Part shown: positions 5,001-50,333 of the stretch, one piece after another
How the letters are laid out: every line of letters begins with the position of its first letter
Numbering within the stretch: position 1 is the stretch's first letter
DNA from: an uncultured delta proteobacterium
Lineage (GTDB): Bacteria > Desulfobacterota > Desulfobulbia > Desulfobulbales > BM004
Reading direction: 5' to 3'
NCBI GenBank assembly: GCA_963783905.1
Contig: CAWAPG010000005.1
Span: 2,820-66,819, forward strand
Length of the DNA: 64,000 bases
Translations under genes and position numbers: made by a program
Notes under the pieces: generated by a model
Told to the model about the DNA's origin: nothing
Databases searched by the model: none
The model's input: only the letters and a program-made list of their open reading frames with translations

Positions 5001-8000
5001 TCCCGCCCCTTTGATGCCGAACGAGACGGGATGGTTCTGGGTGAAGGCGGGGGCATGATCGTCATTGAGCGGGAAAGTTTGGCCCGGGAAAGAGGGGCGC
5101 CTGTCCACGCCGTCATCACGGGCATGGGAGCAAGCAACAACCATCTGGGCATGGTAGAGTCTTCCAGTGTCAGCCAGGAGCTCGCCATCCGCGCCTCTTT
5201 CAAAGAGACACCCTATGGGCCTGATGCGGTTGACCTGGTGGAATGCCATGCCACCAGCACCCGGCAAGGCGACGGACAGGAGGTCCAAGCCCTGCGGTCC
5301 TTCTTCAATTCCTCCAAGCGCACAGTCCTTACCTCGCTCAAGTCCCAGATCGGACATACCCTTGGCGCCTCGGGTATCAACAGCCTCATTCGAGGAGTTA
5401 TGTCCATGAAAGCCGGGGTTTTCCCCCCTACACTCAATTATATAAATCCAGACCCGGAAATAGGCCTGGAAGGATCAGGGTTCTTCGTCGCCCCCGAGCC
5501 GTTTGACTGGCAGTGTGGAGCGGGCCGGTTAAGAAGGCTTCAGGTCAACTCTTTCGGGTTTGGAGGTTCCAACTATGTGGTGCAGTTGGAGCAGGCCAGG
5601 GATGAAGAAGCTGCGATCCTGGTATTGCCGGGCGGTGCGCCCGGTCTCGCCCGGGAGCAAGCTGCCGGCACCTCGGATTTACATGAAGAGCCGAATTCCG
5701 CAGGAGATGCAAGTTGTGGGCCTCCTGAGCTTCAGGGCGTCTCTTTCTTCCGGACAGAGGTCGAAGGCCTCCACTGCCGGATGGCCGTTGTGGCGCCATC
5801 CGAAGAGGAGGCGCTCACGGTCATCGAGAGGTCGGCCTCCATTATCAAATCGGGATTTGTCTCACCCAAGGCATTGAGGTCCCTGGCGCAGCAGGGAATT
5901 TTTATTGGCCGCGAGGATCTGCCGGTGCGGCCGCTCGCCTTGGTATTTCCCGGACAGGGATCACAGTATAACGGAATGGGACGGGAACTCTATGAGTCTT
6001 TTTCCGTGATCAGAGAGTGGATGGATAGGGCTGCAGATGCAGCAGAATTTGATCTCCTTCACCTGATGTTTCACGACCAAGAGGAAAATCTTGCAAAAAC
6101 CCGGTGGCAGCAACCGGCCATGTTTGCCATGGAACATGCCATGGCCCGATACCTCATGACCCTTGGTATCCATCCAGTGGCCATGGCCGGCCACAGCCTG
6201 GGCGAGTTGACCGCTTTGTGCCTGGCCGGTGTCTATTCCCCGGAAGACGGGTTTCGCATCGTGAACAAGCGGGCCCTCTGCATGGACAAGGCCGCCGGCA
6301 TGCACGTGGACCCCGGCGTCATGGCGGCCGTGGACGTCCCCCCGGATCTGCTGCAAGAGATGATCAAGGGACGGAACGATGTCCATATCGGCAATATCAA
6401 TGCACCGAACCAGATCGTCCTGAGCGGCAGCACCAAGGCGGTCAAGGATATGTGCAAGAAAATCAAGGAGATGGGATGCCGGGCCACCCTCCTGCGGGTC
6501 AGCATGGCCTTCCATTCTCCTATCATGAAGGTCATCCATGATGAGCTCGAGGCGTACATTGCCTCCATTCCATTTCATTCTCCACAGATACCCGTCATCT
6601 CCAACAAGACCATGGCGCCGTATCCAGCAGATCCCAATGAGATCAGGCGCATCCTGATGGCCCACCTGGAATCTACCGTCCATTGGATGAATAATGTCCA
6701 GACCCTTAGCAATGACTATGGAGTCGGGCTCTTCGTGGAGGTGGGCCCCGGCGATGTCTTAAGCAATCTCATCGCCGACACGCTTCCTGAATCGATATGT
6801 ATCCAGACGTCCATTCCTGCTGAAGAGGGTTCTACCTACAGGACCGCCCTGGCGCAGCTCTTTGTGCAAGGGTCTCTGCAGGTTGCAGGAGAACCGAGGC
6901 TTGTTTCCCTGCCTCCATTCAGGAAGGCTGCCGAATCTCACCCTGTGGCCCCAGCACCAGGATCGCGATCGTCAAAACCCGGGATGGTGGGCGTTAACCC
7001 GGTGGAAAGAATCATTCAAAGGGAAATCAACCGATTCGTGATGGAGACCTTCGGCCGCTTTCTCAAGCCCAACATCCTGGAAGCCATCCGCCAGGAACTT
7101 GATCCGACATTCCAGGAGGGCGAGCTCTCATCCCTTATCAATTCCATGCTCGGGGATTCCGGGCTTCTCGAAGACCGGGGGCTGGACTCTTCCGGCAAAT
7201 CGGCATCCCCGCCTCTTGCTCGTACCCCTGCGGTTCCGCAATCGGCCTCACCTCCCCTCGGTGAAACGTCTGCATTCCAAACAGCAGGTACCAGCCTGCA
7301 GCCGGCCACCAAGTCTGTTACTCACGGCCCAGTGGGGGATGGGGCCTCGGATTCCAAGTGGAATGAGGGCCAAGATATTACAGAGAGGCTCATTCACATC
7401 ATCATGGATGCGACAGGATTCAACCGGGACGAAATCCAGCCCGATATGGATCTGAGGCGCGACCTCTCCATCCGCTCCAGCCGTCTGCCCATCATCATGG
7501 ATGCCGCGGAACAGCAATTCGGCATCACCATCGAACTGGAGGATTTTATCGGCGTCCGTACCGTGCGGGAAATTGCTGAGAAGATTTCCGATCTGGTCGC
7601 CGGGAATGAAGGTCCCACCCCTTCAACCGCCAAGGCGGTTCAAGCCGGCACTCCAGTCGCGGAGGGACAGGCCGTCCCTGCCCTTGCCGGGTCGCCCCAG
7701 CATCAGGACCGACCAGGACCATATAGAAACGCTTATTCAAATCATCATGGATGCGACAGGATTCAACCGGGACGAAATCCAACCCGATATGGATCTGAGG
7801 CGCGATCTCTCCATCCGCTCCAGCCGCCTGCCCATCATCATGGATGCCGCGGAACAGCAATTCGGCATCACCATCGAACTGGAGGATTTTATAGGCCTCC
7901 GCACGGTGAGGGAAATTGCTGATAAAATTTCCGATATAGTCGCCGCAAAAACAGGTGCCGGCCTGCCATCGGCCGACAAGGCGGCTGACCCCGGCCCGTG

Positions 8001-8145
8001 CGGCAATGAAACCCTGGAGCCCTCGGAGGAGGCGAGTTTAAAGCGGCTCGTATTCCATTGTGTTCCGGCGGAATTGTCGGCATCGGCGCCGATAGAATTA
8101 GGCCAAGGCGAGGCAGTGGCTCTTGCTCTCACCGGACAGGAATGA
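2046..8145 (+). CDS. Iterative type I PKS/FAS-like subunit: degenerate ER-like domain, NPD/PfaD-type enoyl reductase, KS, AT, ACP, ACP (one internal frame change)
   Basis: ORFs 2046..7922 and 7501..8145 are joined by a frame change at about 7700-7720. ER motifs: YPFIQGAMSWISD (~3100) and EGYEAGGHVG (~3490). KS motifs: VAITGMS (~4220), active-site Cys in SVSAACATSL (codon 4824-4826), ECHATST, GHTLGASG. AT motifs: FPGQGSQY (~5945) and GHSLGE (Ser codon 6195-6197). Two ACP units have putative Ser codons at 7476-7478 and 7819-7821. A GGAGGG RBS precedes ATG 2046, and the stop overlaps the next ATG (ATGA at 8142-8145). Confidence 0.85.
7384..7943 (+). repeat. Tandem direct repeat encoding the two ACP domains (period 343 nt)
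   Basis: 7398-7600 and 7741-7943 align without gaps, with about 12 mismatches in 203 nt (hand count). The encoded peptides are IIMDATGFNRDEIQPDMDLRRDLSIRSSRLPIIMDAAEQQFGITIELEDFIG(V/L)RTVREIA. Confidence 0.9.
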
Positions 8146-9519
8146 CGATATTGCCCAAAATGTCCGGAGAGATATTCCGGCAGGATTACGGGGTTGACAC
8201 CTTCCCACTGCTCTTCATGCCGGCGAAAGGTACCGGACAGGAAGGGTATGATATTTTGACGGATGAAGGGTCTCGCCAGGTATCGGAGAAAATAGCGGGT
8301 TTAACAGCCCTGGCCGGGATGGTTATCACCTTGCCGCAAGGCTGGTCGGGAAAATTAAGAAGCATGGAGGATGTTTCGCGGCTTTTGAGGGGACTCTTTT
8401 TACCTTTGCAGACATTTCTGCAATCACCGGCCAAGAAATTCGTGGTGCTTATTCATTGCAGAGATGATGCCGAAACTCGCGGTCGGCTGCTGGCGGAGGG
8501 GATGCTCGGAATGTTCCTGAGCGCAGCGCAGGAGTATACATCGGTCCAGTTTCGCACCCTGGAAATCGACAAGAAAACCGACCTTCGCGCTGCCTTACGC
8601 GATGCTTTGGACAGAGGATACCCGATGGTGGAGATGATTCATCGTGAGGGCAGGGTTTTTACCTCGGAGGGGCACGTCGCCCCGTTGCTCTGCAGGGATC
8701 TGTCACGTCTTGATCTGAGCCCTGGAGACGTTGTCGTCATGTCCGGGGGCGCAACCGGGATCGGCGCCCACCTGGCCCGCAGTCTGGCGCCCTTTAAGCC
8801 CCGCCTGGTCTTTCTGGGGAGGACGCCTCTCGATCCAGGCATGAATACCGTGAACTCCCTGTTCCACGCATCCGCCTTCGGAGTCTTCCGCTCCCGCGGA
8901 CAGGGCCCTGGAGATTACCCGGACCCTGGCGGATCTGCACGCCGCAGGGATCGAGGCAACGTATCATACCTGCGATGTCGCTGACCCCGAGGCGGTCCGT
9001 GCCGTCATGGACGAGGTGGCGAATCGTTATGGCAAGATCCGTGGGATCATCCATGGCGCCGGGGTCCTCAGGGACGGTTTCCTCAGCCAGATGACCCCGG
9101 ATGATTTCTCCATGGTCACGGACATCAAATTCCTCGGGGCGTGGAATCTCTTCCTGGCTGCCGAGAAGGCCGAGTTGAGGTTTTTCGTGGGCCTTTCCTC
9201 GGTGGCAGCGATCCAGGGGAATCCCGGCCAAACCAACTACGCGGCAGCCAACCGGATGATGTCGGCCTTGATCAGAACCCTCCGGCAGAAAAATGGTGCC
9301 ATCCGGTTCAAGGCCTTGATGCTTCCTCCGATCGAAGGGGCAGGCATGGCCGAGGATCCGGATATGCGGGAGCTGATGAGGAGAAAGGGCGTATCGTACA
9401 TCCATGTCAATGAGCTGGCAGGGCTTTTCTGCCGGGAACTGTTCGTTTCCCCGGACGACGATTGGGTGCTGTTCATGAGGACACTCCCCGCTGTGAAGAC
9501 GGCACGGCTCATGACATGA
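8142..9519 (+). CDS. Free-standing PKS ketoreductase (KR) subunit (one internal frame change)
   Basis: ATG 8142 overlaps the upstream stop (ATGA). Rossmann motif VVVMSGGATGIGAHLARSL lies at ~8735-8790. The frame changes between 8852 and 8905, then continues as ALEITRTLADLHAAGIEATYHTCDVADPEAV...IIHGAGV...SSVAAIQGNPGQTNYAAAN (KR Ser/Tyr/Asn set, ~9190-9260). Stop 9517-9519 overlaps the next ATG. Confidence 0.75.
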
Positions 9520-10500
9520 CCCGTCCTCTGCCCTATGGAGAATTGGATGGAGGCACCGCGGCCTTCAGTCCCGGGGACTTTCCCATGATCGAGGGGATCT
9601 CTAGCCTGGACATCCGGCGGGAACAACTCGAGGCTTTCAGATCCTTCTCCCGGGAAAAGGATCTTTGGATCGAGGATCACAGACCCTTGACGTTCGTCAA
9701 GCATCCCCTGGTCTCAGCCGCCATGTTTCTGGAGACATTCATGGAAGCGGCCCGGATACTGTATCCTTACCTGCAGGTGCGGGGAGTTCGCCAGGTGCGG
9801 TTCATGGACATGATCCAATGTCCGCCCGGGGTTCCGCGGCCTTCCAGGATCTCCTGCCGTCGAGTCGGTACCAATCTTCCGGAGGTATGTGTGCGAGGTC
9901 TCTCTTGCGGCACAGGAGATCTCTCCGACCGGGAGATTGACCGACCGCTTCTCCCCGCACTGTCAGGGCCAGGTGATCCTTGCCGGCGGGGATGGCGGAG
10001 ACGGATATCTCGGGGAGGGGTTTCCGGATTTTCCTGTCCGGCCCGACGAACTGCGGACCAGTGCCCATGGATCAGAAAAGGTACTGCAATGGTACAAGGA
10101 CCACAGCGGCCTTACCGGCAGGTATCGCGTGCTGGAGTCCCTTGACGGTGCAGGTCCGGGAGTGGTGCGGGGACAAACCATATACCGGCAGACAGGTGAT
10201 TTCGCAAATCTGGCCAACGCGCAGTACCAATACTCTCCCTACCTTTTCGAAGCCCTTTTGCAGTTGGCCGGCTTCTACTGCATGGCCATGAAGATGCCGG
10301 AGCAACGATCCCTGATTCCCATGGAGATCGGGGAAATGTGGTTTTGCCGAAAATGCCGGGAGGGGGAGCGGATCACCCTGGAGGCCCGCATGCGGGCAGA
10401 GAACGAGCAAGGCCTCAGCTGGGACGCCAGAGGAGTTGACGAACAGGGTCGCACCATCATGCAGGTTGCCGATATGCGGATGCAATGGGTTTCAGAATGA
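9516..10500 (+). CDS. Free-standing PKS dehydratase (hot-dog DH) subunit (one internal frame change)
   Basis: ATG 9516 sits in an ATGA overlap. DH signature LWIEDHRPLTFVKHPLVSAAMFLE is present (His codon 9678-9680), and the C-terminal half reads YSPYLFEALLQLAGFYCM. The frame changes at about 9886-9893 inside a tgtgtg run. Stop is at 10498-10500. Confidence 0.65.
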
Positions 10501-11289
10501 ATAATGTCGATGGTTGGAGATGTCTTTCTATCTCACCCGATGAACGATTACCAGAGAGTGGATGTGGCGAAGAATATGCCAAAATATAACCGTCCATGCC
10601 GTGAGTTTTGATCGGCAAGGGGGGCAGGCATTCTATGCCTCCTTGCCGGGCCGATGCCGAAACCTGCAAACAGTACCGGGCCAACGGGGCAGGAGACAGG
10701 AATCATCTGGCCTCCGTCCTCCTGGACCACGTTGCGGCGATGGAAAATCCCTCTCTGGAAAAGCCGGCTTTCCTTCGATAAAGCGGCTTTCCCGATTCAC
10801 GTGGTCCACGGCCCGCTCGGCCGGCCCCATCTCCTCTTGGGAGAATATCGGGTCCCGGCCATCTCCTTCAGCGAGGGTGGCGGGAGAGTCTGGGCCGCTC
10901 TTTGCGGGGATGAGTCCGATATCGGCATTGATGTGGCAGCGGCCGATGAATTCCAGGGAGAATATCCCTTGCACCGAGTTTTTCATGACCAGGAGCTGCA
11001 GCATGCATTGAGGTTGACAGGCGGAGATCGGGAAAAAGCAGCAGCCCTGCTCTGGTCCATCAAGGAAGCGGTGGTCAAGGCCCTGGGATGCGCGTTCCAC
11101 CTGGTGGCGCCCCGACAAGTCCTTGTCTATCCAGCCCTGAGCGGAAACGGGGGGTATACTTTTCCAGTGGGCTTATCAAGGCAGGCCCTGGTGCGGTCTC
11201 CCTCCGCTGCCGGCAGCTCCATCCGGGTGCGTTCGTTTCCCCGGGAAAAGTTGTGGCTTTCCATCGCCTTTTTGAAGGTCAATTCATGA
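10497..11289 (+). CDS. Sfp-type 4'-phosphopantetheinyl transferase; N-terminal ~100 codons cannot be read in one frame
   Basis: The C-terminal two thirds (ORF 10654..11289) carry GPLGRPHL...ISFSEGGG...IGIDV and WSIKEAVVKALG (PPTase motifs). An ATGA-coupled ATG at 10497 gives MNNVDGWRCLSISPDERLPE (typical W...LSPDE start) but stops at 10587. All three frames contain stops between 10497 and 10780. Stop 11287-11289 overlaps the next ATG. Confidence 0.7.
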
Positions 11290-12239
11290 CAAAAGAAGCT
11301 GAATACGCCATCGAAGTCGAAAAACTGACGAAGCGCTACGGGGATTTGGAGGCGGTTAATGACATTTCGTTCAATGTCAGGCAAGGCGAGGTTTTCGCCT
11401 TGCTGGGCCCCAACGGAGCCGGTAAGACCACTACCGTCGAGATAATCGAAACCACCCGCAGGCCAACCTCGGGGATCGTTCGTCTGCTCGGGATGGACGT
11501 CACAAAGGAAAAGCGCAACATCGTCCCCCGCATCGGGGTCCTGCCCCAGGGGTTCAGCTCGTTTGACCGGATAACGGTCAGGGAGACCTTGCAGTATTAC
11601 TCGCGGCTCTTCAGTAGCAGAAACGCCGATATCGACGGGCTGATAGAGCTCGTGAAGCTCACGGATAAGGCCCGGGAGCAGTACATGAGCCTCTCCGGGG
11701 GGTTAAAGCAGCGACTCGGAATCGCCATTGCCCTGGTCAACGACCCCGAGGTGGTGTTTCTCGACGAGCCGACCACCGGACTCGACCCGCGCGCCAGGCA
11801 CGAGGTGTGGGATGTCCTGGTGGGCCTGAAAAAGCAGGGAAAGACGGTATTTCTCACCACGCACTACATGGAGGAAGCCGAGCTGCTGGCAGACACGGTA
11901 GCCATTATCTCCAAGGGCAGGATAATCGCCATGGACTCTCCCGAGCATCTCATGGCAAGCAATGCGGATTACCTGATCCTCACGCTCCAGGGCGTTGATG
12001 AAAAAGCTTTTGAGGTCGTTGGGAAGATGGGCTTTGATCCGCAACTTAGCAACCACAAGAACATTACGGTGAGGATCAATCGCATGGACGACATCCGCAA
12101 TATATTGAACGCCATGGACGATGCCGGGGCGCCGGTGCTCAGCATGGACGTTCGCAAGCCCAACCTCGAACAGGTTTTCCTGAAGCTCACCGGCGAGGCG
12201 CTCCACGAAGGCGCCGCCGAGGAAAAGGGGGCAGTATGA
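11286..12239 (+). CDS. ABC transporter ATP-binding protein
   Basis: Walker A GPNGAGKTTT, signature LSGGLKQRL, Walker B VVFLDEPTTGLD. ATG 11286 overlaps the PPTase stop (ATGA), and the stop overlaps the permease ATG at 12236. Confidence 0.9.
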   Translation: MTKEAEYAIEVEKLTKRYGDLEAVNDISFNVRQGEVFALLGPNGAGKTTTVEIIETTRRPTSGIVRLLGMDVTKEKRNIVPRIGVLPQGFSSFDRITVRETLQYYSRLFSSRNADIDGLIELVKLTDKAREQYMSLSGGLKQRLGIAIALVNDPEVVFLDEPTTGLDPRARHEVWDVLVGLKKQGKTVFLTTHYMEEAELLADTVAIISKGRIIAMDSPEHLMASNADYLILTLQGVDEKAFEVVGKMGFDPQLSNHKNITVRINRMDDIRNILNAMDDAGAPVLSMDVRKPNLEQVFLKLTGEALHEGAAEEKGAV

Positions 12240-13352
12240 ATTTGCGCGTTGTTGCCGCAAGTCTGGTCATAAGCTTCAAGAGCTTTTACCGCGAAAAGAC
12301 CACCATGTTCTTTACCTTGACCTTCCCGATCATGCTGATCCTGGTGTTCGGCACCATTTTCATGGATGACGACAAGATCAACTTCAACCTGTGCGTGCAG
12401 GACCTCGATCAAACCGCCACCTCGGCGGAGATCTCCCAGGCCCTTGACTATACCGGCAAGCTCCAGATAACCCAGGTTGATCCGGCCATCGACGCCACCC
12501 AGTACGCCAAGGACAACCAGGTCAACCTTGTCCTCGTGATTCCCAAAGGCTACGAAGAAGCTTACGGACGAATATCTGCAATCAGACTATCCCAGCGCCT
12601 TCGTTACCTTCACGTATATCTACGACCCCAGCTCAGTCTCGGTGGTTGATAAGATGCAGATCCTGGAGATGGTGTTTGCCAGGCTGAACCAGGGGCTGAC
12701 CGCAATGCCGCCGTTCATCAGGACGAAGACCGTATCGATACACACCCGGAAATACCGGTTCATCGAGTTCTTCATCCCCGGCATCATCGCCATGATGGTC
12801 ATGACCGAGAGCATGTTCGGCACGGTGAACGTGAATACGGAGCTGCGGCAGAAAGGCATCATCAGGAAGCTGGCCACCACCCCCATCACCCGTACCGACT
12901 GGATCGTGTCGAACATTCTGTACCAGTTCATGCTCGCGGTCATCGCCACCACGGCCATGCTGCTGGTGGGCTATGGTGTGTTTGACGTCAAATTGCAGAT
13001 AAACGCCTGGCTGCCGTTGTTCATTGTGCTTGACGTCTTCATGTTCGTCGGCATCGGCATGCTGCTCACCCGCGTCGTGCGGGAGGCGCAGAGCGCCGCC
13101 GCCGCCGCCAACGCCGTTGCCTTTCCGATGATGTTTCTCTCCGGCAGTTTCTTTCCCCTGGAGATGATGCCGCGCTTCCTGCAGACCTTCGCCAAAGTGC
13201 TGCCTCTGTACTATGTCAACGAGGGCCTCCGGGCCTCCATGGTGTTTCACGACAACATGGCCTCCCTGCGTTACGCCGCTATCTTAGGAGCTCTCGCTAC
13301 CGCGGTCTTCATCGTGGGCATAACGGCCACTCGATGGGAGGAGAGCAAGTAA
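12236..13352 (+). CDS. ABC-2 type transporter permease (one internal frame change)
   Basis: ORFs 12236..12649 and 12642..13352 are joined by an indel near 12565-12570 (KGYEEAYG then EYLQSDYPSAFVTFTYIYDPSSVSVVDKMQ in the next frame). The protein has an N-terminal TM helix, a periplasmic loop, and a C-terminal multi-TM ABC-2 domain (FFIPGIIAMMVM..., AFPMMFLSGSFFPLEMMP). Confidence 0.8.
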
Positions 13353-13603: not shown

Positions 13604-14605
13604 CTACCGCCGGCGCACCCAATCGCAGCTGAGGCAGGTCGGAAACCCGCGATAGTCGAGCTTGCCGAAGTTCCTCCTGATTGCGGCCAACGTCGGCCCA
13701 TTCCAGATTTCCCTTAGACTCTGGGAATTCACATCTCCTACGCCCTGAACGCCATTGTAATCTACGCAACAGGTAACGGCCCTGCCGTTGCAGAGCACCG
13801 ACAGGGCTGACCAGGGGTAAAAACAGACAGACACAATCCTTTTTCCCAGAACGTTGTACGACTTCCCGCCGCCAAAGTTGTCCAAAGAGCTGATATTCAT
13901 GCAGTCGCCGCTATTTTTATCCGGCAGAGAACGGTACAGAGCTTGAAACTCCTCGCTTCTGGCCCCATTGGCTTCCTGGGGCAGGTATTGCAGGATCAGC
14001 TTCGGGGTCTTTTCCCCCAGTTCCTTCCTTATTCTCATAAAGTCTTTGATGTTTTGCAGCGTCACCTTGAAATCCAGCCTTCTCATGGTGGCGTTATATG
14101 ATTGTTCATCGGTGCCGTAAAAACTGATCTTCATCCTATCCAATCCCGCATGAATGATCTTTCTCGATGTCTCGGGGAACAGTAACGATCCATTGGTCAC
14201 GATATAGGTATGCTTTATCCCGCAGGCCTTGGCGAGCGCGATTCTTTCAGGCAATAATGGATCCAGAAGCGGTTCGCCGAACCCGTGCAGATGGACGACG
14301 GGTTTTCGGCGCGCACTGGAGAGTTCTGCCATGATCTTTTCGAATAAGCCAAACTCCATGAAGCCGTGTTTTCGGGTCAGCGTGTCGCGAGGGCACATAA
14401 CACACTGCGCGTTGCAGCAGTTGGTATTCTCGATCAGTAGCACCGAGGGCAAGGGGAGGTGGTGTCGGTAATATGGATAATAAAGCAGGGGGGTCCGGGC
14501 CAATGACGTCAACAGGCACTTTGTTATCTTGTCCCGGATGTTCAGAATCATGTTGCCTGCTTCGTTTAGTCGTAACCGTTCGGGGAAAATGCAACTCTTT
14601 CTCAT
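13604..14605 (-). CDS. Radical SAM enzyme with C-terminal SPASM/twitch-like Cys-rich domain
   Basis: CxxxCxxC cluster motif CNAQCVMCP lies at ~14400-14430 on the minus strand, followed by GFGEPLLDP. The C-terminal Cys-rich stretch is CFYPWSALSVLCNGRAVTCCVDYNG...FPTCLSCDW. The gene starts 20 nt downstream of the FAAL-ACP-AOS stop. An alternative start is at 14551. Confidence 0.8.
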   Translation of the reverse strand: MRKSCIFPERLRLNEAGNMILNIRDKITKCLLTSLARTPLLYYPYYRHHLPLPSVLLIENTNCCNAQCVMCPRDTLTRKHGFMEFGLFEKIMAELSSARRKPVVHLHGFGEPLLDPLLPERIALAKACGIKHTYIVTNGSLLFPETSRKIIHAGLDRMKISFYGTDEQSYNATMRRLDFKVTLQNIKDFMRIRKELGEKTPKLILQYLPQEANGARSEEFQALYRSLPDKNSGDCMNISSLDNFGGGKSYNVLGKRIVSVCFYPWSALSVLCNGRAVTCCVDYNGVQGVGDVNSQSLREIWNGPTLAAIRRNFGKLDYRGFPTCLSCDWVRRR

Positions 14606-14625: not shown

Positions 14626-17600
14626 TTAGTCATGCTGCAAGGCTTCCAGCTCCGCAACGACAACATCCAGGGTAAAACGAATCTGTTCGGGCGTATGGGT
14701 GCAGTTGACAAAAAAGCGCAGCCGGGCAAAGTTGTCAGGAACTGCCGGATAGACCATGGGCAAGACATCGATCCCCTGCTGGGAGAGGGATTGCGAGAGT
14801 CTTGTCGCCTTCAGGGAATCTCCCACGATCAACGGAATTATAGCGGAATCGCAACTGCCGGCGCCGGTATTGAGACCCCTTTCCCGAGCCAGCAGATGAA
14901 AAAGCCCGGCGAGTTCATGGAGGTGCGTCACCCGCTGCGGCTCCTTCCGCAACAAGCGAATGGCGGCCAGGGCTGATGCGACATTCGGCGGCGATATGCC
15001 CACGCTGTAGACGAAGCCCGGCGCCGTGTATTTCAGGTATTCGATGAGGGCCCGGGAGCCGGCGATGTAACCTCCGCAACTGGCAAAGGATTTGCTCAAG
15101 GTGCCCATCCAAAGTTCCACATCGGCGGGATTGACACCAAAGTGCTCGCCAATCCCCCTGCCTCTTTTCCCCAATGCCCCGATGGAATGGGCCTCGTCCA
15201 CCATGAGAAGGGCACCGTACCGTTTCTTTATCTTGATAAACTCCGGAAGTTCAGGGATATCACCATCCATACTGTAAAGGCCTTCGATAACCACGAGGGC
15301 CCGTCGGAAACGGGGTCGCGACTCCTTGAGAATCGTGTCCAGGGCTCGCCAGTTGTTGTGCGGAAAAGAAAGAGACGTTGCCTGGGAGAGCCGGCATCCC
15401 TGGAGAACACTGTTGTGGATCAGGGCATCATGAATGATGAGGTCGGATTTGCCGAAAAGATGGCCGATAGTGGTCACGTTGGTGGCATGGCCGCTCACAA
15501 ATACCAGGCTGTCCTCGGTACCAATCAAATCGGCGATTTCTTGCTCAAGCTCCCGATGCAGGGGCCTTTCGCCTGAGGCAATACGGCTTGCCGAAACGGA
15601 CGTGCCGTAGCGGTCGATGGCGTCTTTGGCGGCTTGCGATACGACCGGATCTCCGGACATACCCAGGTAATTGTACCTGGAAAATGAAATGAACTCTCGA
15701 CCTGCGGCAATGGCGCAATTGAAGTCGACCCCTTCGTGCACCCGGAAGTAAGGATTGTCGATACCCCGCGCCTTCATTCCCTGGATGATCCGCTGCAGAT
15801 TCCGGTATTCGGGGTAGTCCGCAAACGGCAGGTACTCCGGTTGTATCTTAGGGGCCTTGCCATGGACGTCAGCCTTTTCCGCCGGCTCTCCGGATTGACG
15901 GCCGGATGAAAGCAGCTTTCCCAAAGGTCCGTCTTTGGCTTCAAGTCCTCTTCCCGACGTCCTTTGCCAGAGAACATGCGCTGTCAGGTCGGAAATACCA
16001 GCCCCCAGAAAGAGCGCCTCAAAGGGAAACTCGATTCCCATCTCTTCTTCAATGTCCGTCTTCATCTCCATTGCCATCAAAGAATCAATGCCCATCATAT
16101 TCAGGGGACAGTGCACATCCACCCTGGAGAACGGGATCTTCAGGAGGTCCGCCACCTTTTTGGTAATATAATGCTCAATGGCACGGAAGAACTCCGACGT
16201 ATCTTTTGTCTCCATGTCATCCGATTCCAACAAGTCGAGCTTAAGTGCACGGCCATCCGGAAGGCTTGCAGCCGACGTGTCCGTTCTCATGTGGCCCGGT
16301 TTCCATTCGTCCCATGCCTCGTCGCGGGGTATCCTCGGCTCAACTTCCCAGGAAGGGACCGGACACTTGGCAACAACCTGCAAGTTGCCCTGGATGAAAT
16401 GTTCCCGACAAAGGCGACGTTGGACCTTGCCACTGGTCGTTTTGGGAAGACTTGCGGTCTTGATGAGCGCCACCGCGTAAACCCCGATTCCATGCTCTCT
16501 TGATACACTTTGGCAAATGGATTTGACCACCGCCACTGCGTCAAGTTTTCTGAGGTGTAGTCGCTCGATCTCCTGCACCACCACCAACCGTTCATCACCC
16601 CCGACTTCAACGGCGAACGCCACCCCGCAGCCTGGCCGCAAGGCCTCATGGCTTCTCTCCACGGTCCCCTCAATGTCTTGCGGATAGTAATTGAGGCCCC
16701 GGATGATAATGAGGTCCTTCAGACGACCGGTGACAATGAGCTGGCCGGCATGGATGAACCCGAGGTCTCCCGTACGCAGAAAGGGACCTTCTCCCGTATC
16801 AGCAAGCCTTGCCCGGAAGGTCTGCTCCGAATCTTCGGGCCGATTCCAATATCCTTGGGCAACACTTGGTCCAGAGATCCATATTTCTCCGATCTTATCG
16901 CGCTCGCAGAGAGTTTGCGTCTCCGGGTCGACGATCACAATCTCATGGCCCGGCAACACTTCCCCGGTTCCAACCAGCTCGAAATCGTGCTCGCTGTCTT
17001 CTGCCGCCAGGGAAAAGCGGCCGGCTATCAACGCCTGCGCGTCCACCTGCAGGAATGTCGGTTTGGCGCTTTTGTCGCATCCGGTGGCGATAAGGGTCAT
17101 TTCCGAGAGACCATAACAGGGCAGAAATGCTTTTTGCCGAAAGCCGCAGGGTTCGAACGCCGCGGTAAAGCGCTGGAGCGTCTCCCACCTGACCGGCTCG
17201 GCACCGTTAAAAGCGACATCCCAACTGCTCAGATCAAGCTCTGACTTCTGCTCCGGCGTGATCTTTTGCACACAAAGATCGTAGGCGAAATTCGGCCCGC
17301 CGCTGCTCGTGCCCTTATAGCGTGAGATGGCCATAAGCCAGCGGAGCGGTTTTTGGATGAAATGCACTGGCGATATCAGGATCGCATCTCCACCTGCGTA
17401 AAGGGGCTGGATGATCCCACCGACCAACCCCATGTCGTGGTAAGGCGGCAGCCAGATTATGCCGCGCATACTCGATGAATGCCCAAAAACTGTTTGGATG
17501 GCGGCTGAATTATGGAGGATGTTTCCATGGCTGACCATTATGCCCTTGGGATTTCCCGTGGAACCGGAGGTGTATTGGAAGACAGCGGAGGAATCAGCAC

Positions 17601-18141
17601 CTAGGGGGGGTTCCTGCCAACCATCTGCCAGGTCGTCGGCAATGGTGTCGGTTGCTATCCAGTTGAGGGTCGCCAGCCCGGGAGTCTGACCTATTTGGTG
17701 TCCGTACTTCTCCAGGGTTGAGGCGGTGGAGAGAGCCGCTGCTGGTTCTGCGTCGGCTGCCGTTGCGGCGAGGCTGGCCAGGAACCGGTTGGAATACGGG
17801 AGATTGACCGGCACGGCGACCATGCCCGCACACAGGCACCCGAAGAATGCCGCGGGAAACTCGATGCCCGTAGGGTAAAGCAAAAGGACTCTTTCCCCCG
17901 GAGAGAAACGAGATTGAAGATGTGCGGCAATGGCAAGCGCCCTCTGTTCCAGCTCACAATATGTCAGTCCGGTTTCTTGTGATTCTCCATCGTTGAGATA
18001 GGTGTAGATGGTTTTCTCTCCATGGACTTGAGCCCTTCGGCGCAGCAGGTGGATCAGGTTCGTAACTCCTGGCGTGCAACTCCTGGGGACCGGGGAGAAG
18101 TGAGCCGTATGGCTTGAATCGTCTTCCAGACTATTATACAT
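14626..18141 (-). CDS. Tri-domain fusion: fatty acyl-AMP ligase (FAAL) - ACP - PLP-dependent alpha-oxoamine synthase (Spt/BioF/Kbl family)
   Basis: Intact 1171-aa ORF. FAAL motifs are FQYTSGSTGNPKGIMVSHGNILHN, YGLSE, TGDLGF and PKTTSGKVQR. The ACP motif is MGIDSLMAMEM (Ser codon 16081-16083). The AOS domain has YNYLGMS, SGHATN, DEAHSIG and the PLP-lysine in GTLSKSFASCGGY (Lys codon 15091-15093). Confidence 0.85.
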   Translation of the reverse strand: MYNSLEDDSSHTAHFSPVPRSCTPGVTNLIHLLRRRAQVHGEKTIYTYLNDGESQETGLTYCELEQRALAIAAHLQSRFSPGERVLLLYPTGIEFPAAFFGCLCAGMVAVPVNLPYSNRFLASLAATAADAEPAAALSTASTLEKYGHQIGQTPGLATLNWIATDTIADDLADGWQEPPLGADSSAVFQYTSGSTGNPKGIMVSHGNILHNSAAIQTVFGHSSSMRGIIWLPPYHDMGLVGGIIQPLYAGGDAILISPVHFIQKPLRWLMAISRYKGTSSGGPNFAYDLCVQKITPEQKSELDLSSWDVAFNGAEPVRWETLQRFTAAFEPCGFRQKAFLPCYGLSEMTLIATGCDKSAKPTFLQVDAQALIAGRFSLAAEDSEHDFELVGTGEVLPGHEIVIVDPETQTLCERDKIGEIWISGPSVAQGYWNRPEDSEQTFRARLADTGEGPFLRTGDLGFIHAGQLIVTGRLKDLIIIRGLNYYPQDIEGTVERSHEALRPGCGVAFAVEVGGDERLVVVQEIERLHLRKLDAVAVVKSICQSVSREHGIGVYAVALIKTASLPKTTSGKVQRRLCREHFIQGNLQVVAKCPVPSWEVEPRIPRDEAWDEWKPGHMRTDTSAASLPDGRALKLDLLESDDMETKDTSEFFRAIEHYITKKVADLLKIPFSRVDVHCPLNMMGIDSLMAMEMKTDIEEEMGIEFPFEALFLGAGISDLTAHVLWQRTSGRGLEAKDGPLGKLLSSGRQSGEPAEKADVHGKAPKIQPEYLPFADYPEYRNLQRIIQGMKARGIDNPYFRVHEGVDFNCAIAAGREFISFSRYNYLGMSGDPVVSQAAKDAIDRYGTSVSASRIASGERPLHRELEQEIADLIGTEDSLVFVSGHATNVTTIGHLFGKSDLIIHDALIHNSVLQGCRLSQATSLSFPHNNWRALDTILKESRPRFRRALVVIEGLYSMDGDIPELPEFIKIKKRYGALLMVDEAHSIGALGKRGRGIGEHFGVNPADVELWMGTLSKSFASCGGYIAGSRALIEYLKYTAPGFVYSVGISPPNVASALAAIRLLRKEPQRVTHLHELAGLFHLLARERGLNTGAGSCDSAIIPLIVGDSLKATRLSQSLSQQGIDVLPMVYPAVPDNFARLRFFVNCTHTPEQIRFTLDVVVAELEALQHD

Positions 18142-18471
18142 TTCTTCCTTTTCGGTCGAAGAAACTTTTTTTGTTTCAAGATAATCCTGTCGTATATTCG
18201 CAACAAGATGTGTTTCATGTCCTTACTATTTGAAACATATAATAAATCTTTAGAGTAGTGCAACTAAAAGAATGGGGAAAGCAAGGCGTAAAGGGATAAA
18301 TATTCGAGGGGCCAGACTACTTGAGAGGTTTCTCTCTAAACCTTTTTCACAACAAGTAATATAAGTTTTCATTACGATAGTTAAATCTAAAACTCACATT
18401 TTTTCAAATGAAGATAAAAGGTATTTCGGGGCAGACCATGTATTTTTATCCACCAGCTTTCATTGCAGAGC

Positions 18472-18520
18472 AAAAAGAAATGAGCGCCTTTCCATGTACT
18501 GGAAAGGCGCTCATTTTTAT
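18472..18520 (-). terminator. Rho-independent terminator (bidirectional architecture) after the ZraP/CpxP-like gene
   Basis: A perfect 13-14 bp stem pairs 18481-18493 (tgagcgcctttcc) with 18501-18513 (ggaaaggcgctca) around a 7-nt loop. It is flanked by an A-run on the left (a T-run on the minus strand) and ttttt on the right. Confidence 0.65.
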
Positions 18521-19885: not shown

Positions 19886-20330
19886 GTGTGCCACGAACGC
19901 ACCAAAGGGTTTTATACCCCCAAGCGCGGTGCTGTACAAGAGATGAGGGCAGGTTTCTCGAAGCCGTCATACAGGTAGAGGCTTCAAACTACCTTAAGCT
20001 GCGCTGGTAAAGAGCCAGGGTGGTGAGTGTTAAGGAAAAGGCCTCGCAGGACGGGGTCAGGTAGGATTCAAGGAGGCGAGCGCAAGCGAACCACTGATGA
20101 GGTGTCGAAAAGTTAAAGATGACGTCAAAACCGAAGGCTTGTGGTACTCCGGGATAAGTTCAGGGGAGACCTGTTTACTGCCTGGGCGGCGTCCGGCATA
20201 AAGGTGGCGCGACCTTGAAACAGGCTCTTGTATGGAACGTGAGAACCTGTCGTTCCGATGATAACGGGAGACTGTCACGTTTGGAACTGTGAGAGCCAGG
20301 GGGTGAGATTCCCCCAGCTACTCGACTCGA
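19886..20330. ncRNA. Candidate large structured RNA (class unknown; strand not established)
   Basis: A GC-balanced block inside AT-rich spacer, with stops in all six frames. It has many nested complementary segments (coordinates are in the findings), including a three-way junction at 20170-20224 and a G5/C5 hairpin at 20299-20315. Confidence 0.3.
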
Positions 20331-20451: not shown

Positions 20452-20937
20452 TTACTCCAATTTTTTTTTGATTTCCTGCACATTGGGCTTGTTAAGCAAC
20501 TTCACAATCTTCGGATTGGTCATCAAACCGTTAAAGTCGCCGGAGTTGATCGCCTTTATAATGGTTTCGTCCTGGAGGATATCCTGGAAGTCCGGGTCGC
20601 TCTGCAGGGACAGGATCAGCTGCATGATAGAACCATCCGCTATCATTTCTTTTTGGATCGCCATGATTTTCTGTTGGCCCGAAACCTCTCCCGGTTCAGC
20701 CGTTGTTCCTGATATATTACGGATGGTCTTAACCCTCGCATCTTCTACCTTCAAGGTTCCAAGGGCAGCAGTCTTAATGGTGTAAACCCCCTCTGTCAGT
20801 GATACCAGCTCGCCGACGATAACGCTGCCGTCAGCCAGGACGATCTCCCGTATTTCTCCGGCGTGAACTGCCGGGGGGAGAGTCATGCAAAGCAGCAAAA
20901 AAATACCACACAGTGTTTGTTTCATTGTTTTCCTCAT
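20452..20937 (-). CDS. Secreted hypothetical protein (161 aa)
   Basis: The signal peptide ends in PPAVHA. The protein has an N-terminal beta-rich part and a C-terminal helical part, with no recognisable family motif. Confidence 0.6.
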   Translation of the reverse strand: MRKTMKQTLCGIFLLLCMTLPPAVHAGEIREIVLADGSVIVGELVSLTEGVYTIKTAALGTLKVEDARVKTIRNISGTTAEPGEVSGQQKIMAIQKEMIADGSIMQLILSLQSDPDFQDILQDETIIKAINSGDFNGLMTNPKIVKLLNKPNVQEIKKKLE

Positions 20938-21258
20938 ACCGATCCTATCCTTCGCTTTTATGCGTCTCGTCTGAAATCATAGTATTGATAATCTATTTCT
21001 ACCGACCTTAATTGGAGATCGGCAGTTTACATGTACATGTTAACAACATTTCTGCGATTAAGGAGGAAAAAGGTTCTATCTGCCGGGAATTGATACCAAT
21101 GTGCTGTATAGGCTTTTGCAAGCGGTTCATGCTTAAACATCCAGCCCTTTTTGAAAACCTGATGCCGCGGATTGATCTCGTTTGGTTACCCTGACAAGAG
21201 CCGATTATTCATTTAAAAATCTTAACATCTAAAATATCATTGGCGAAGAAATGCAGCA

Positions 21259-21894
21259 TCAGGGGACGTAACGCACTGTGAGCAGCGGAGCGGTAATGGA
21301 GACGGAAGGAAGATCCTCAATGCCTACAAACCCCACATCTGTAGAGAAATCGAGAATAAACCGCACCTGGAAATCCGGGAGACCGAGGCGTTGCGCTTCC
21401 CGCATTAATGGCGTAACGTCAATCGATACAAAAGTCCCAAGATCCACATCAAAAAAATTTAACGATTGAGACATCCACGGGTCAGAATCGAAGTCTTGCA
21501 CCCGCAAGCCGGCAACAGGGAAAGAGACAAGATCGAGGAGCGTGGGGACAATGGAAGAAAAATTCACTTCGTTAATGAATACTTCCAGGGTTGCGGAAAC
21601 TATTCTGGCGTTAATAGGTATAACATTCCCGCCGGTGGAATCGTCGAGTGGAAAATCCAGAAAAGCACGGTATTCCGGTAGATTTTGGTCAAGATCATCA
21701 ATACCGAAAAACAGAGTTCCCGGTCCGTTGGTAATAGTGTAGGATTGCAGGGCAGGATCAAAGGCGATATCACCATCCGCCGGCTGATCGCTTAAGATGT
21801 CGGCCACGATTGCTGGCCGCGGACTGCTCCCGCCGTTGCAGGAAAGGGTCAACAGCATTATAGCCAAAATCCCGAGTAGTGATAGTTTACGCAT
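21259..21894 (-). CDS. Lipoprotein, possibly with a DNRLRE-like beta-sandwich domain
   Basis: Lipobox LLTLSC follows the signal peptide, and a strong RBS AGGAGG lies 6 nt upstream. The pattern RAFLDFPLDD...IPINARIVSATLEVFIN resembles the R-x-L-L-x-F-D-L ... I-x-S-A-x-L signature of DNRLRE-type domains. The call is by eye only. Confidence 0.6.
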   Translation of the reverse strand: MRKLSLLGILAIMLLTLSCNGGSSPRPAIVADILSDQPADGDIAFDPALQSYTITNGPGTLFFGIDDLDQNLPEYRAFLDFPLDDSTGGNVIPINARIVSATLEVFINEVNFSSIVPTLLDLVSFPVAGLRVQDFDSDPWMSQSLNFFDVDLGTFVSIDVTPLMREAQRLGLPDFQVRFILDFSTDVGFVGIEDLPSVSITAPLLTVRYVP

Positions 21895-22442
21895 TGTGTA
21901 CCTCCTGAAGTAAACCCGTGATTGAACTTTACTAGGGTTATTCGGTTCTCAAGGTCTGTCGTGTTGTCATTTGCATCTTTGCGCCTGTCTCAATTTAACG
22001 CCTAAGCAAGCAAAGCCATACCCAGAGTATAACCCGGTTATGGGGTAAGTGGCAAGGAGGTTATCCTGATAAGACCTTTGCTGTAGCTGGTGCTATATAT
22101 TGCAAATACAGCTTGCCACAACCGCTGGTTTTTAATGCCTGCCGGGTTTAGTCAAGCCATCGGGAGGTGCAGGGTTGACGCCCGATCCGCAACCCGGAAT
22201 AAAGGAAGTTTGGCGAAAGAGTAGACGTCCTGCCCGGATAAACGGGACGGACAATCTTACAACCGGAGAAAAATACGGTATATTGTAAAAAAGGTTTGTA
22301 AGTTGGCCGGGCTCGGGGTAAGAAACCCGCACGATTGGCAACATACATAGGCAACGATCCCAAGGACGCGGCGGATTGGATGAAGCACTGGGTGGGAAAG
22401 TAGAGCGAAAAAGGGATGCAAAATGCATATTTTCGCATATCG

Positions 22443-22478
22443 AAAAAAGAAAAAGCTGTAACCATTTAAGATTACAGC
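22443..22478 (-). terminator. Putative terminator downstream of tRNA-Leu
   Basis: A 7-bp stem pairs gctgtaa (22455-22461) with ttacagc (22472-22478). On the minus strand it is followed by ctttttctttttt. The stem is short and AT-rich. Confidence 0.35.
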
Positions 22479-22491
22479 AATCTTGAATTGT

Positions 22492-22578
22492 TGGTGCCGA
22501 AGGGGAGATTTGAACTCCCACAGGGAAACCCCTACTAGACCCTGAACCTAGCGCGTCTACCAATTCCGCCACTTCGGC
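22492..22578 (-). tRNA. tRNA-Leu (anticodon CAG), CCA encoded
   Basis: The reverse complement reads GCCGAAGTGGCGGAATTGGTAGACGCGCTAGGTTCAGGGTCTAGTAGGGGTTTCCCTGTGGGAGTTCAAATCTCCCCTTCGGCACCA. It has a 7-bp acceptor stem, a long variable arm, and anticodon loop TTCAGGG. Confidence 0.92.
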
Positions 22579-22719
22579 ACGCAGGCAGGAGGCAATATTA
22601 GTACGGGGGTGAAATTTGTCAAGAGGTTCTTCACGCAGCCATTTGAAATTATTTAACGCCTTGGAGAAGAGGTCGGAAAATCGGGAAGCTGCTGTTGATT
22701 TCCGGCAGAAAACGAGTCC

Positions 22720-23694
22720 ATGAAAATATTTAACAACCTTGCAGATATTACCGCCCCCTTTGTCGAGAGCTTCGTTACCATCGGCAACTTTGACGGGGTG
22801 CACCTGGGGCACCAGATGCTCTTTTCCGAGGTGGTCGGCAGGGCCTATCATAAAGGCGGCACCAGTGTTGTGGTTACCTTCGAGCCGCACCCCCTGCAGG
22901 TGATCCGTCCGGAAATCGGCAGCAAGCTCATTTCAACCTATGAGCAGAAGGTGGAAATGATCTCGCATGCCGGCATCGACGTCCTGGTGGTCATTCCTTT
23001 TACCAGGGACTTTGCGGCAATCAGCGCCGAAGCCTTTGTTGATGATGTTTTGATCAAAACCATAGGGGTGAAGGAGCTGGTGGTTGGCTATGATTATGCC
23101 TTTGGCCGGGGACGGCAGGGGAATATTGAATTTCTGAAGGAGCAGGGGCGGCTGAAGGGATTTCCGGTCATGGTGGTGGAGCCCTTTTATGTTGAAGATA
23201 TGCTGGTCAGCAGCAGCAAGATCCGTGAACTGGTGCGGGAAGGCCGGATGATGGATGTCAAGAAGCTGCTCGGCCGTTATTACCAGATCAGAGGTACGGT
23301 GCAGGAAGGCCGGAGAAGAGGCGGTCCGGTTGTCGGTTTTAAAACCGCCAACCTGCACCTGTCCGAAGAAGATCTCTGCCCGAAAATAGGAGTGTATGTC
23401 ACCCAGGTCGTCTATGAAGGGAAATGCTACGGCGGCGTCCTGAATATCGGTTATAATCCGACATTCGGCGAAAACCGCCTGTCGGCCGAAACCCATATAT
23501 TCGACTTCAACCAGGATATTTACGGCAAGAAAATTAAGATCAACCTGCTGAAATACCTCCGGAGTGAAAAGAAATTTTCCGGTCCTGAAGAACTCGCTGT
23601 CCAGATACGGGAGGATATCCGCCGGGCCCGGGAGATTCTGGGCCGGGCTCAGAAGGAGCTGCTGCTCTCATGCGAGGAAAAATATAACCGCTGA
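22720..23694 (+). CDS. ribF: Bifunctional riboflavin kinase / FMN adenylyltransferase
   Basis: N-terminal FAD synthetase motifs TIGNFDGVHLGHQ are present. The C-terminal riboflavin kinase region reads GRRRGGPVVGFKTANL...GVLNIGYNPTF...ETHIFDF. Confidence 0.92.
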   Translation: MKIFNNLADITAPFVESFVTIGNFDGVHLGHQMLFSEVVGRAYHKGGTSVVVTFEPHPLQVIRPEIGSKLISTYEQKVEMISHAGIDVLVVIPFTRDFAAISAEAFVDDVLIKTIGVKELVVGYDYAFGRGRQGNIEFLKEQGRLKGFPVMVVEPFYVEDMLVSSSKIRELVREGRMMDVKKLLGRYYQIRGTVQEGRRRGGPVVGFKTANLHLSEEDLCPKIGVYVTQVVYEGKCYGGVLNIGYNPTFGENRLSAETHIFDFNQDIYGKKIKINLLKYLRSEKKFSGPEELAVQIREDIRRAREILGRAQKELLLSCEEKYNR

Positions 23695-36339: not shown

Positions 36340-36344
36340 GTTCA

Positions 36345-38612: not shown

Positions 38613-38779
38613 GGATAAATTCCTATTTACAGTCGATTGGCGGTGTGGTATACGCTGCCAATCGACAAATCCAGAGGATGAGATGCTGCAACCGGTTGAT
38701 GCTTAAGGGATAGGAGGGGGAAATAATCTCCTTGTGGAATTTTAATTGAGGGAATCTGGAGAAAACAGGAGGCTGAAGA

Positions 38780-40092: not shown

Positions 40093-40168
40093 GCTGGCGT
40101 AGCTCAATTGGCAGAGCAGCTGATTTGTAATCAGCAGGTTGCGGGTTCAAGTCCCATCGCCAGCTCCA
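40093..40168 (+). tRNA. tRNA-Thr (anticodon UGU), CCA encoded
   Basis: GCTGGCGTAGCTCAATTGGCAGAGCAGCTGATTTGTAATCAGCAGGTTGCGGGTTCAAGTCCCATCGCCAGCTCCA, with anticodon loop TTTGTAA. Confidence 0.93.
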
Positions 40169-40238
40169 GACGAGTAGTCGCAAGTGTCGACCCGGGAAGC
40201 TGTTCATGAGAGTGGGGCGGTATCTGCGAAGGTGAAAT

Positions 40239-40323
40239 GGAGGGGTTCCCGAGCGGTCAAAGGGAACAGACTGTAAATCTGTCGGCGACGCCTTCGGAGG
40301 TTCGAATCCTCCCCCCTCCACCA
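40239..40323 (+). tRNA. tRNA-Tyr (anticodon GUA), CCA encoded
   Basis: Acceptor GGAGGGG pairs with CCCCTCC. The anticodon loop is CTGTAAA, a long variable arm is present, and the T-arm is GGAGGTTCGAATCCTCC. Confidence 0.93.

Positions 40324-40617: not shown

Positions 40618-40693
<76 letters not shown>

Positions 40694-46232: not shown

Positions 46233-50333
<4,101 letters not shown>

Follow-up and report, generated by a model that had tools for sequence, protein, structure and literature searches.

The window analyzed here is a stretch of 64,000 nucleotides from an uncultured delta proteobacterium of the Desulfobulbales lineage BM004 (GenBank assembly GCA_963783905.1, contig CAWAPG010000005.1), and coordinates are given relative to its first letter unless another locus is named. 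Its minus strand carries a gene for a single polypeptide that joins a predicted fatty acyl-AMP ligase (FAAL), an acyl carrier protein (ACP) domain and a predicted pyridoxal 5'-phosphate (PLP)-dependent alpha-oxoamine synthase (AOS). The plus strand carries a facing set of genes for a CerR-like short-chain dehydrogenase/reductase (SDR), a bacterial ceramide synthase (bCerS)-like N-acyltransferase, a polyketide synthase (PKS) of the iterative type I class, a phosphopantetheinyl transferase (PPTase) and an ATP-binding cassette (ABC) transporter (Table 1). The central question is what would such a fusion make, and which of its neighbors would take part? The comparisons presented below lead us to favor, as the probable answer, a single-polypeptide long-chain-base synthase that would catalyze the first step of ceramide-like lipid synthesis.

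An intact gene for a three-domain fusion

The fusion is encoded by one uninterrupted minus-strand open reading frame (ORF), and a GGAAG Shine-Dalgarno-like sequence is located a few bases 5' of its start. An AT-rich spacer (18142-18477) lies upstream of the gene, and the terminator-like hairpin beyond this spacer would mark the upstream limit of the fusion transcription unit and set it apart from the ZraP-like gene. Codons were mapped such that residue n occupies positions from 18141-3(n-1) downward, and the translation contains the motifs FQYTSGSTGNPKGIMVSHGNILHN (residues 188-211), PKTTSGKVQR (566-575), GIDS (684-687) and GTLSKSF (1013-1019). The initial annotation, which had described a single intact ORF of 1171 residues and had quoted these motifs together with the codons of the carrier Ser and the PLP Lys, was correct on each of these counts. 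Its assignment of three fused functions likewise holds across Pfam, NCBIfam and the alignments described below, with Pfam matches to AMP-binding at residues 33-432 (5e-65), a DIP2-like AMP C-terminal domain at 476-590, PP-binding at 658-723 (1.3e-12) and Aminotran_1_2 at 816-1155 (5e-42). Among ~5.8 billion proteins searched, more than 100 match the fusion over its full length at 50-82% identity and have the same three Pfam domains, most of them from Desulfobacterota-type metagenome bins (Syntrophobacteraceae, Desulfobulbus and 'Deltaproteobacteria'), and the length of the fusion agrees with that of its nearest relatives (1171-1173 aa). Given these homologues and the length shared with the nearest relatives, the ORF does not represent a chance reading frame, and it is intact although the assembly has frameshift errors elsewhere.

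Is the ligase domain a FAAL or a fatty acyl-CoA ligase (FACL)? The FAAL models of NCBIfam each match as one continuous stretch in the range of 360-430 bits (PRK05850, 430; PRK12476, 415; FadD32, 394), as compared with 124-180 bits for FadD-type acyl-CoA ligase models, several of which are split into three stretches; none of the subfamily-specific curated cut-offs is reached by the fusion. The 15 best PDB matches are all FAALs. Among three reference enzymes, the olefin-synthase FAAL 7R7F shows the greatest identity to the domain (48%), followed by E. coli B AasR (34%) and FadD (25.5%). The initial annotation had named the absence of a FAAL-specific insertion as an observation that would overturn its assignment, and inspection of the HMMER alignment reveals that the insertion is present. 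Residues around 360-392 of the fusion pair, with no gap, with the segment '...VDRDQLNSGR...' of M. smegmatis FadD32, which holds R368, L371 and N372. These correspond to the Arg368, Leu371 and Asn372 that the FadD32 structure paper assigned to the insertion motif (PMC4667280). In a second alignment (A2), the insertion is shared by the fusion of the window, a further two fusions and AasR of E. coli B, and E. coli FadD, a true CoA ligase, shows a gap of ~25 residues at this site. Published criteria for FAALs are the rejection of coenzyme A (CoA) by a blocked canonical CoA pocket, acyl transfer to holo-ACP and an alternative pantetheine pocket (PMC8460268). On the basis of the insertion and of the profile and structure matches, the ligase domain is assigned as a FAAL rather than a FACL.

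The carrier domain holds D686, S687 and L688, which are invariant in 12 diverse fusions (alignment A1), and the linkers on either side of it vary in both length and sequence in the same alignment, as expected for segments that would act as flexible tethers.

For the third domain, an alignment with E. coli B Spt, E. coli Kbl, E. coli BioF and the S. multivorum serine palmitoyltransferase (SPT) was examined (A3). The His, Asp, His, Thr, Lys and Arg columns that represent the stacking His, the Asp-x-x-His and Thr-x-Ser-Lys motifs and the C-terminal Arg are invariant. Equivalents of H138, D210, H213, T241 and S243-K244 of S. multivorum SPT and of its conserved C-terminal Arg are all present, with Lys1017 situated in GTLSKS. 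The roles of these residues are those of the PLP lysine, the stacking His, the Asp that contacts the pyridine nitrogen, the His that contacts O3' and the Arg for the substrate carboxylate (PMC10196870). By alignment, all PLP and catalytic residues of the AOS domain are conserved. The best PDB matches of the domain are bacterial and eukaryotic SPTs (244-213 bits), the best KBL scores 211 bits, and cysteate acyltransferase is among the weakest at 161 bits. A YNYLG motif resembles that of S. paucimobilis SPT, a likeness that is anecdotal only, and the JGI annotation of the protein reads '8-amino-7-oxononanoate synthase'.

The ceramide-type gene neighborhood

Five structural genes are known for making ceramide in Caulobacter and E. 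coli B, namely aasR for a CoA-rejecting acyl-ACP synthetase, acpR for a dedicated ACP, spt, epi/cerR for an epimerase-family reductase and aca/bcerS (yghO in E. coli B) for an acyl-CoA N-acyltransferase (PMC9386255, PMC11324152). In blastp comparisons with the E. coli BL21(DE3) locus, the FAAL domain is 34% identical over 537 aa to AasR (E 7e-78), which RefSeq names 'fatty acyl-AMP ligase', and the AOS domain is 34% identical over 331 aa to Spt (E 2e-55). The N-acyltransferase ORF, for which no match was found in Pfam or NCBIfam, is 34% identical over its full length to YghO (E 1.5e-66), itself a homologue of Caulobacter CC_1154/bCerS (PMC9386255), and its homologues carry the NCBI name 'acyl-CoA N-acyltransferase'. 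For the SDR, the match is ECD_02852, the epi/CerR homologue of E. coli B, with 30% identity across 266 aa (E 9e-31). Since the fusion would supply three functions and the YghO-like and epi-like ORFs the remaining two, the locus is predicted to encode all five ceramide-pathway functions, with the likeness to Caulobacter CC_1154 and CC_1164 running through the E. coli B homologues. Genomic association with bCerS and CerR has been used as the criterion for 'Spt-like' proteins in a study that found Spt-like genes in 38 phyla and linked Desulfobacterota with 1-deoxyceramides (Ding et al., PMC11334938), and this association is observed in the window cluster. The same bCerS/CerR arrangement is kept in a Syntrophobacteraceae metagenome-assembled genome (MAG; locus L092) and an 'uncultured Desulfobulbus' 1-Mb contig (L093), where a 326-aa SDR orthologue lies directly upstream of the bCerS-like gene.

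Both of these relatives have an intact cluster sequence, and in both the order is a 318-aa gene, SDR, bCerS-like gene, PKS, PPTase, ABC ATPase and ABC-2 permease. The cluster is conserved at L001, L092, L093, L094/L095 and L096, and the fusion gene faces the SDR-to-permease operon at L001, L094/L095 and L096. The PKS has the domain order ER(NMO)-KS-AT-ACP-KR-DH without a thioesterase and occurs in relatives as one ORF of 2652-2710 aa, and the ABC transporter has orthologues of 74-79% identity at L001, L094 and L096. In another Syntrophobacteraceae MAG (L085), a 56%-identical fusion adjoins a CerR-like SDR near a 50%-identical PKS. The link between PKS and fusion rests on this conserved synteny, and the PKS may deliver its product to the FAAL, to the AOS or to the N-acyltransferase. 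The radical S-adenosylmethionine (SAM)/SPASM gene is predicted to share an operon with the fusion gene and is likewise placed after the fusion at L084 (83% identical) and L094/L095. Because it is absent at the L001 and L096 loci, we regard it as a probable accessory gene, and its matches are to generic families only, with patchy conservation.

Two further observations concern these clusters. A 318-319 aa protein without a Pfam match is encoded directly upstream of the CerR-like SDR (L092 7919-8878; L093 7883-8839); its gene would fall just beyond the left edge of the window and may be a further cluster member. The stretch between PKS and fusion at L085 contains a further three radical SAM genes, and two of these are B12-binding.

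Table 1 Predicted features of the fusion gene and its surroundings
Feature	Coordinates	Strand	Basis
FAAL-ACP-AOS fusion gene, 1171 aa	14626-18141	-	Intact ORF, ATG start
FAAL domain, residues 28-592	16366-18060	-	Continuous match to FAAL NCBIfam models
FAAL-specific insertion, residues ~355-392	16966-17079	-	Gapless alignment to FadD32 insertion motif
Acyl carrier domain, residues 658-723; phosphopantetheine Ser687 (codon 16081-16083)	15973-16170	-	PP-binding match, 1.3e-12
PLP-dependent AOS domain, residues 779-1162; PLP Lys1017 (codon 15091-15093)	14656-15807	-	PDB matches, residue alignment
Strong terminator-like hairpin	18478-18516	-	17-bp stem then T-run, after upstream ZraP-like gene
CerR-like extended SDR (epimerase/dehydratase family), cut by window edge	8-847	+	Homology to epi
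Acyl-CoA N-acyltransferase, bCerS-like, 373 aa	888-2009	+	Homology to YghO
Iterative type I PKS/fatty acid synthase-like gene, at least 7 frame segments	2046-10500	+	Pfam domains, frame map
Sfp-type PPTase, two frame changes	10577-11289	+	ACPS Pfam match; tblastn with L001 orthologue
ABC transporter: ATPase 11286-12239, ABC-2 permease 12236-13352 (one frame change)	11286-13352	+	Pfam
Radical SAM/SPASM gene	13604-14605	-	Pfam Radical_SAM and SPASM; 20 nt downstream of fusion

The PKS of the window contains at least 6 frame changes, and this gene, the PPTase and the permease are single ORFs in relatives. Loss of these three genes by pseudogenization was considered and rejected, since the essential rpoC is equally broken, being split into three ORFs (50381-54447). 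For this reason, the frame breaks most likely represent assembly indel errors and not gene decay, and gene calls in the window should be treated with care. Elsewhere in the window, an Rfam match to group II intron domains D1-D4 is found at 19945-20062 (+) with 93 bits against a gathering score of 36, and the nearby ORFs at 20452-22890 (-) have no Pfam match. Two EF-Tu genes of equal length (40776-41966 and 57931-59121), a tRNA gene cluster (40093-40690), rpoB (46233-50333) and fusA (55767-57845) show that the window spans a conserved chromosomal translation and transcription region, and HdrA/MvhD-type genes (35083-39970) fit an anaerobic Desulfobacterota-like organism.

Distribution, precedents and origin of the fusion

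Close relatives of the fusion were taken from the protein database, and relatives in the genome collection are the matches listed, which have at most 51% identity. Among these matches, full-length fusions at 38-51% identity are distributed over Acidobacteriota (Pyrinomonadaceae and others), many Planctomycetota (one bin being labeled Pirellula staleyi), Phycisphaerales, Gemmatimonadota, Nostoc minutum NIES-26 and Legionella resiliens. A tblastn search with the window proteins places a bCerS-like gene beside the fusion in Gemmatimonadota (L015), Phycisphaerales (L018), Legionella resiliens (L020) and Acidobacteriota (L022), and a homologue of the window SDR is also common to two of these four loci. 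At seven Planctomycetota loci (L005, L007, L011, L023, L048, L067 and L070), the fusion sits among housekeeping genes (enolase, rRNA dimethylase, riboflavin synthase domain) and adjoins BBP7 porin-like and BamB-like genes, with no PKS within ~8 kb. Longer versions of the fusion also exist, namely P0105 (1554 aa, Caldilineaceae) with a luciferase-like monooxygenase domain (PF00296) and P0106 (1708 aa) with acyl-CoA dehydrogenase domains (PF02770/PF00441/PF02771). In cyanobacteria, an ACP-AOS didomain gene (L075 9905-11542) belongs to the same AOS clade, and Microcystis sp. LSC13-02 (L060 69-12636) encodes an unfused 442-aa AOS that is 62% identical to the window AOS domain. This Microcystis AOS comes directly after two modular PKS proteins (KS-AT-KR-ACP and KS-AT-DH-KR-ACP) and before a short-chain dehydrogenase, an arrangement that looks like a PKS-to-aminoketone-to-amino-alcohol cluster.

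The closest functional precedent is the AasR/AcpR/Spt system of Caulobacter crescentus, E. coli B and Sphingomonas (Padilla-Gomez 2022, PMC9386255; Olea-Ozuna 2021), which combines, step for step, the three activities predicted for the fusion and shares the companion N-acyltransferase (bCerS/aca) and epimerase-family reductase (CerR/epi). In that system, the acyl-AMP ligase rejects CoA and charges an ACP of its own, and the PLP condensing enzyme prefers the resulting acyl-ACP as its substrate (PMC9386255). Homology is detectable for four parts of the pathway (AasR, Spt and YghO at 34% each, epi at 30%). However, AasR, AcpR and Spt are three separate cognate proteins, and the window protein, as one ORF, is not a strict member of this system; genes for an iterative PKS, a PPTase and an ABC-2 exporter, and in some cases the radical SAM gene, are further components of the cluster. 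The domain order itself is identical to that of the 'A-CP-PLP2' architecture cataloged in 2013 from Blastopirellula marina (A3ZWL3), Microscilla marina (A1ZVW4) and Synechococcus PCC 7002 (B1XHP8), with a PLP domain modeled on S. multivorum SPT, and the Planctomycete example belongs to the fusion group recovered here (Milano et al. 2013, PMC3870968). Their survey, bioinformatic and structural in nature, assigned no function, FAAL class or sphingolipid context (PMC3870968). It alone turned up when the full-text literature was searched for a functional study of the fused protein, and none was found; a Nostoc punctiforme 'putative SPT' (PMC8895605) was set aside as an unfused BioF-like protein. 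The fusion is widespread, and its architecture has been cataloged.

Other comparisons involve AOS enzymes that are linked to assembly lines or ligases. Assembly-line AOS enzymes of the RedL/PigH, SxtA and Fum8 types act on a tethered or locally generated acyl thioester, and RedL, unlike the window fusion, has ketosynthase (KS) modules. The substrates of these enzymes, and of the natural BioW-BioF fusion (BioWF), are short or specialized acyl groups and not free long-chain fatty acids. BioWF (PMC9544090) joins an acid-activating ligase to an AOS, as is seen here, and uses CoA without a carrier domain. In P. fluorescens MYb115, SgaA/SgaB/SgaC likewise cluster an iterative type I PKS with an AOS and a reductase, SgaB has SPT activity, and the products are sphinganines (PMC12134224). 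Unlike the window fusion, SgaB is a stand-alone AOS that lacks both FAAL and ACP. The Sga reductase belongs to the KDSR type and not the CerR type, and no bCerS gene is described in the Sga cluster (PMC12134224).

How did the fusion arise? The FAAL domain is markedly more similar to 7R7F than to AasR, and the AOS domain is no nearer to proteobacterial Spt than to Kbl. For these reasons, the fusion is probably an independent assembly that would have started from a PKS-type FAAL-ACP didomain and not from a fusion of aasR, acpR and spt genes.

A probable long-chain-base synthase and its alternatives

We hypothesize that the fusion works in the manner of the AasR/AcpR/Spt module, and the steps that follow, including the choice of amino acid and the part played by the PKS, are modeled on family knowledge and on those unfused proteins. 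The N-terminal FAAL would adenylate a free long-chain fatty acid, and the acyl group would be passed to the phosphopantetheine on Ser687 of the protein's own carrier domain and not to CoA. The flexible linkers would then let the acyl-ACP reach the C-terminal PLP enzyme, presumably an AOS homodimer, which would condense the acyl group with an amino acid and release CO2 to form a 2-amino-3-keto long-chain base. Serine is a plausible substrate and would yield 3-ketosphinganine, and alanine or glycine is a possible one that would yield a 1-deoxy analogue. The bCerS-like N-acyltransferase and the CerR-like reductase would next produce a (dihydro)ceramide-type lipid, the cluster PPTase would prime the carrier domains, the ABC-2 transporter may move the lipid, and the iterative PKS would most likely supply one of the two acyl chains. 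Because many lineages carry the fusion without a PKS, the route in cis from FAAL to ACP to AOS would serve as the general model. The initial annotation had proposed the same passage from free fatty acid through acyl-AMP and acyl-ACP to PLP-dependent condensation with CoA bypassed, and this proposal, together with the likeness to the AasR/AcpR/Spt module, is supported at the level of sequence and has been demonstrated for the unfused proteins (PMC9386255). It had further left the product as either a sphingoid-base precursor or a signaling ketone. The first of these gains from the bCerS-like and CerR-like genes of the conserved cluster, and the second fares poorly, with the CqsA/LqsA-type model as the weakest match. 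The novelty is less than was at first assumed, since the three-protein version and PKS-derived bacterial sphingolipids have both been published.

One alternative is that the fusion acts as the loader and off-loader of the thioesterase-less PKS, such that FAAL-ACP primes the KS with a fatty-acid starter, the PKS extends this starter, and the AOS sets the PKS-bound chain free by condensation with an amino acid. The resulting sphingoid base would be PKS-derived, like those of Pseudomonas SgaAB or fungal Fum1/Fum8. The absence of a thioesterase, the synteny of PKS and fusion in every Desulfobacterota relative examined, and the 48% identity of the FAAL domain to an olefin-synthase loading FAAL are all consistent with this idea. 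The 62%-identical unfused Microcystis AOS directly behind KS-AT-DH-KR-ACP modules, and the sphinganine synthesis by PKS and AOS reported in 2025 for P. fluorescens MYb115 (PMC12134224), provide precedents for it. However, the fusion occurs without a nearby PKS in Planctomycetota, Nostoc, Legionella, Acidobacteriota and Gemmatimonadota, which argues that the route in cis would be sufficient in these PKS-free lineages. Moreover, an ACP between FAAL and AOS is most simply viewed as a shuttle between those two domains, and the PKS is co-oriented with the bCerS-like gene and not with the fusion, an arrangement that fits a PKS supplying the N-acyl chain equally well. On balance, we consider a loader and off-loader unlikely. 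It is also quite unlikely, by our estimate, that in these anaerobic Desulfobacterota a fusion of independent origin brackets the PKS, loading its starter through FAAL-ACP and off-loading its chain through the AOS with a non-serine amino acid to give an unusual 1-deoxy or very-long-chain base tailored by the radical SAM enzyme. Were this true, it would provide a route to the unexplained deoxy-ceramide classes of euxinic waters.

Could the AOS domain instead use cysteate, as for sulfonolipids of the capnine type, or represent a BioF/Kbl-type enzyme of primary metabolism? Sulfono-1-deoxyceramides correlate with Desulfobacterota in the Black Sea (PMC11334938). The bioF model also tops the scores of the domain against NCBIfam models at 344 bits. 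Nevertheless, this score falls under the curated cut-off of 426, the PDB match to cysteate acyltransferase is among the weakest, no bio genes are present among the window ORFs scanned, and a long-chain FAAL and ACP fusion would be ill-suited to acetyl-CoA or pimeloyl substrates, all of which makes this an improbable explanation. The production of a signaling alpha-amino or alpha-hydroxy ketone, as by CqsA/LqsA, and not of a membrane-lipid precursor would involve the same condensation chemistry. Of the AOS models, the CqsA-type one matches most weakly, at 158 bits for a cut-off of 428. There is no cognate sensor kinase beside the gene, which instead keeps an N-acyltransferase, a reductase, a PKS and an exporter as its conserved partners, such that we regard a signaling product as highly improbable.

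The long-chain-base synthase that we favor must itself be weighed against several observations. The curated NCBIfam cut-offs for SPT are not reached (NF047600, 315/640; NF047599, 274/500; NF047603, 245/670), and the bioF model scores above these SPT models, the Kbl model standing at 288/460. BLAST of the AOS domain gives 201 bits to E. coli Kbl, 187 to E. coli B Spt and 170 to BioF, and pairwise similarity was dropped as a discriminator between SPT and Kbl/BioF since these scores do not separate them. In a neighbor-joining tree (200 bootstraps) with five references (the Ec, Sp and Sm SPTs, Kbl and BioF), the fusion AOS domains are monophyletic at 100% bootstrap, and their clade groups with the three verified SPTs against Kbl and BioF at only 67%. 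The serine hydroxyl in S. multivorum SPT is recognized through the PLP phosphate and waters (PMC10196870). Such largely water-mediated recognition leaves no sequence signature, and residue-based prediction of amino-acid specificity was dropped for this reason. The FAAL domain is nearer to a PKS-loading FAAL than to AasR, and the same AOS clade, which follows modular PKSs in Microcystis, can evidently serve PKS-bound chains, such that these represent a possible alternative substrate. Finally, no bCerS or CerR gene was found within 8-10 kb of the fusion at Planctomycetota loci, and the published association is lacking there.

If a long-chain-base synthase is confirmed, the committed step of bacterial sphingolipid synthesis, with its own fatty-acid activation and carrier, would reside in one self-contained protein, and this one-protein step would span Desulfobacterota, Planctomycetota, Acidobacteriota, Gemmatimonadota, some cyanobacteria and Legionella. 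The fusion would then serve as a simple genomic marker of sphingolipid potential in uncultured anaerobes, which surveys based on stand-alone Spt, or annotations as 'BioF' or 'aminotransferase', may mislabel. It would also represent a compact CoA-independent catalyst for the conversion of free fatty acids to aminoketones and sphingoid bases. While the chemistry is of an expected kind, the single-protein form, its breadth across phyla and its pairing with PKS and ceramide genes in anaerobes make it worth experiment. In relatives among the sulfate reducers and syntrophs, the fusion stays paired with an iterative PKS and a ceramide synthase, which points to PKS-tailored ceramides in anoxic settings.

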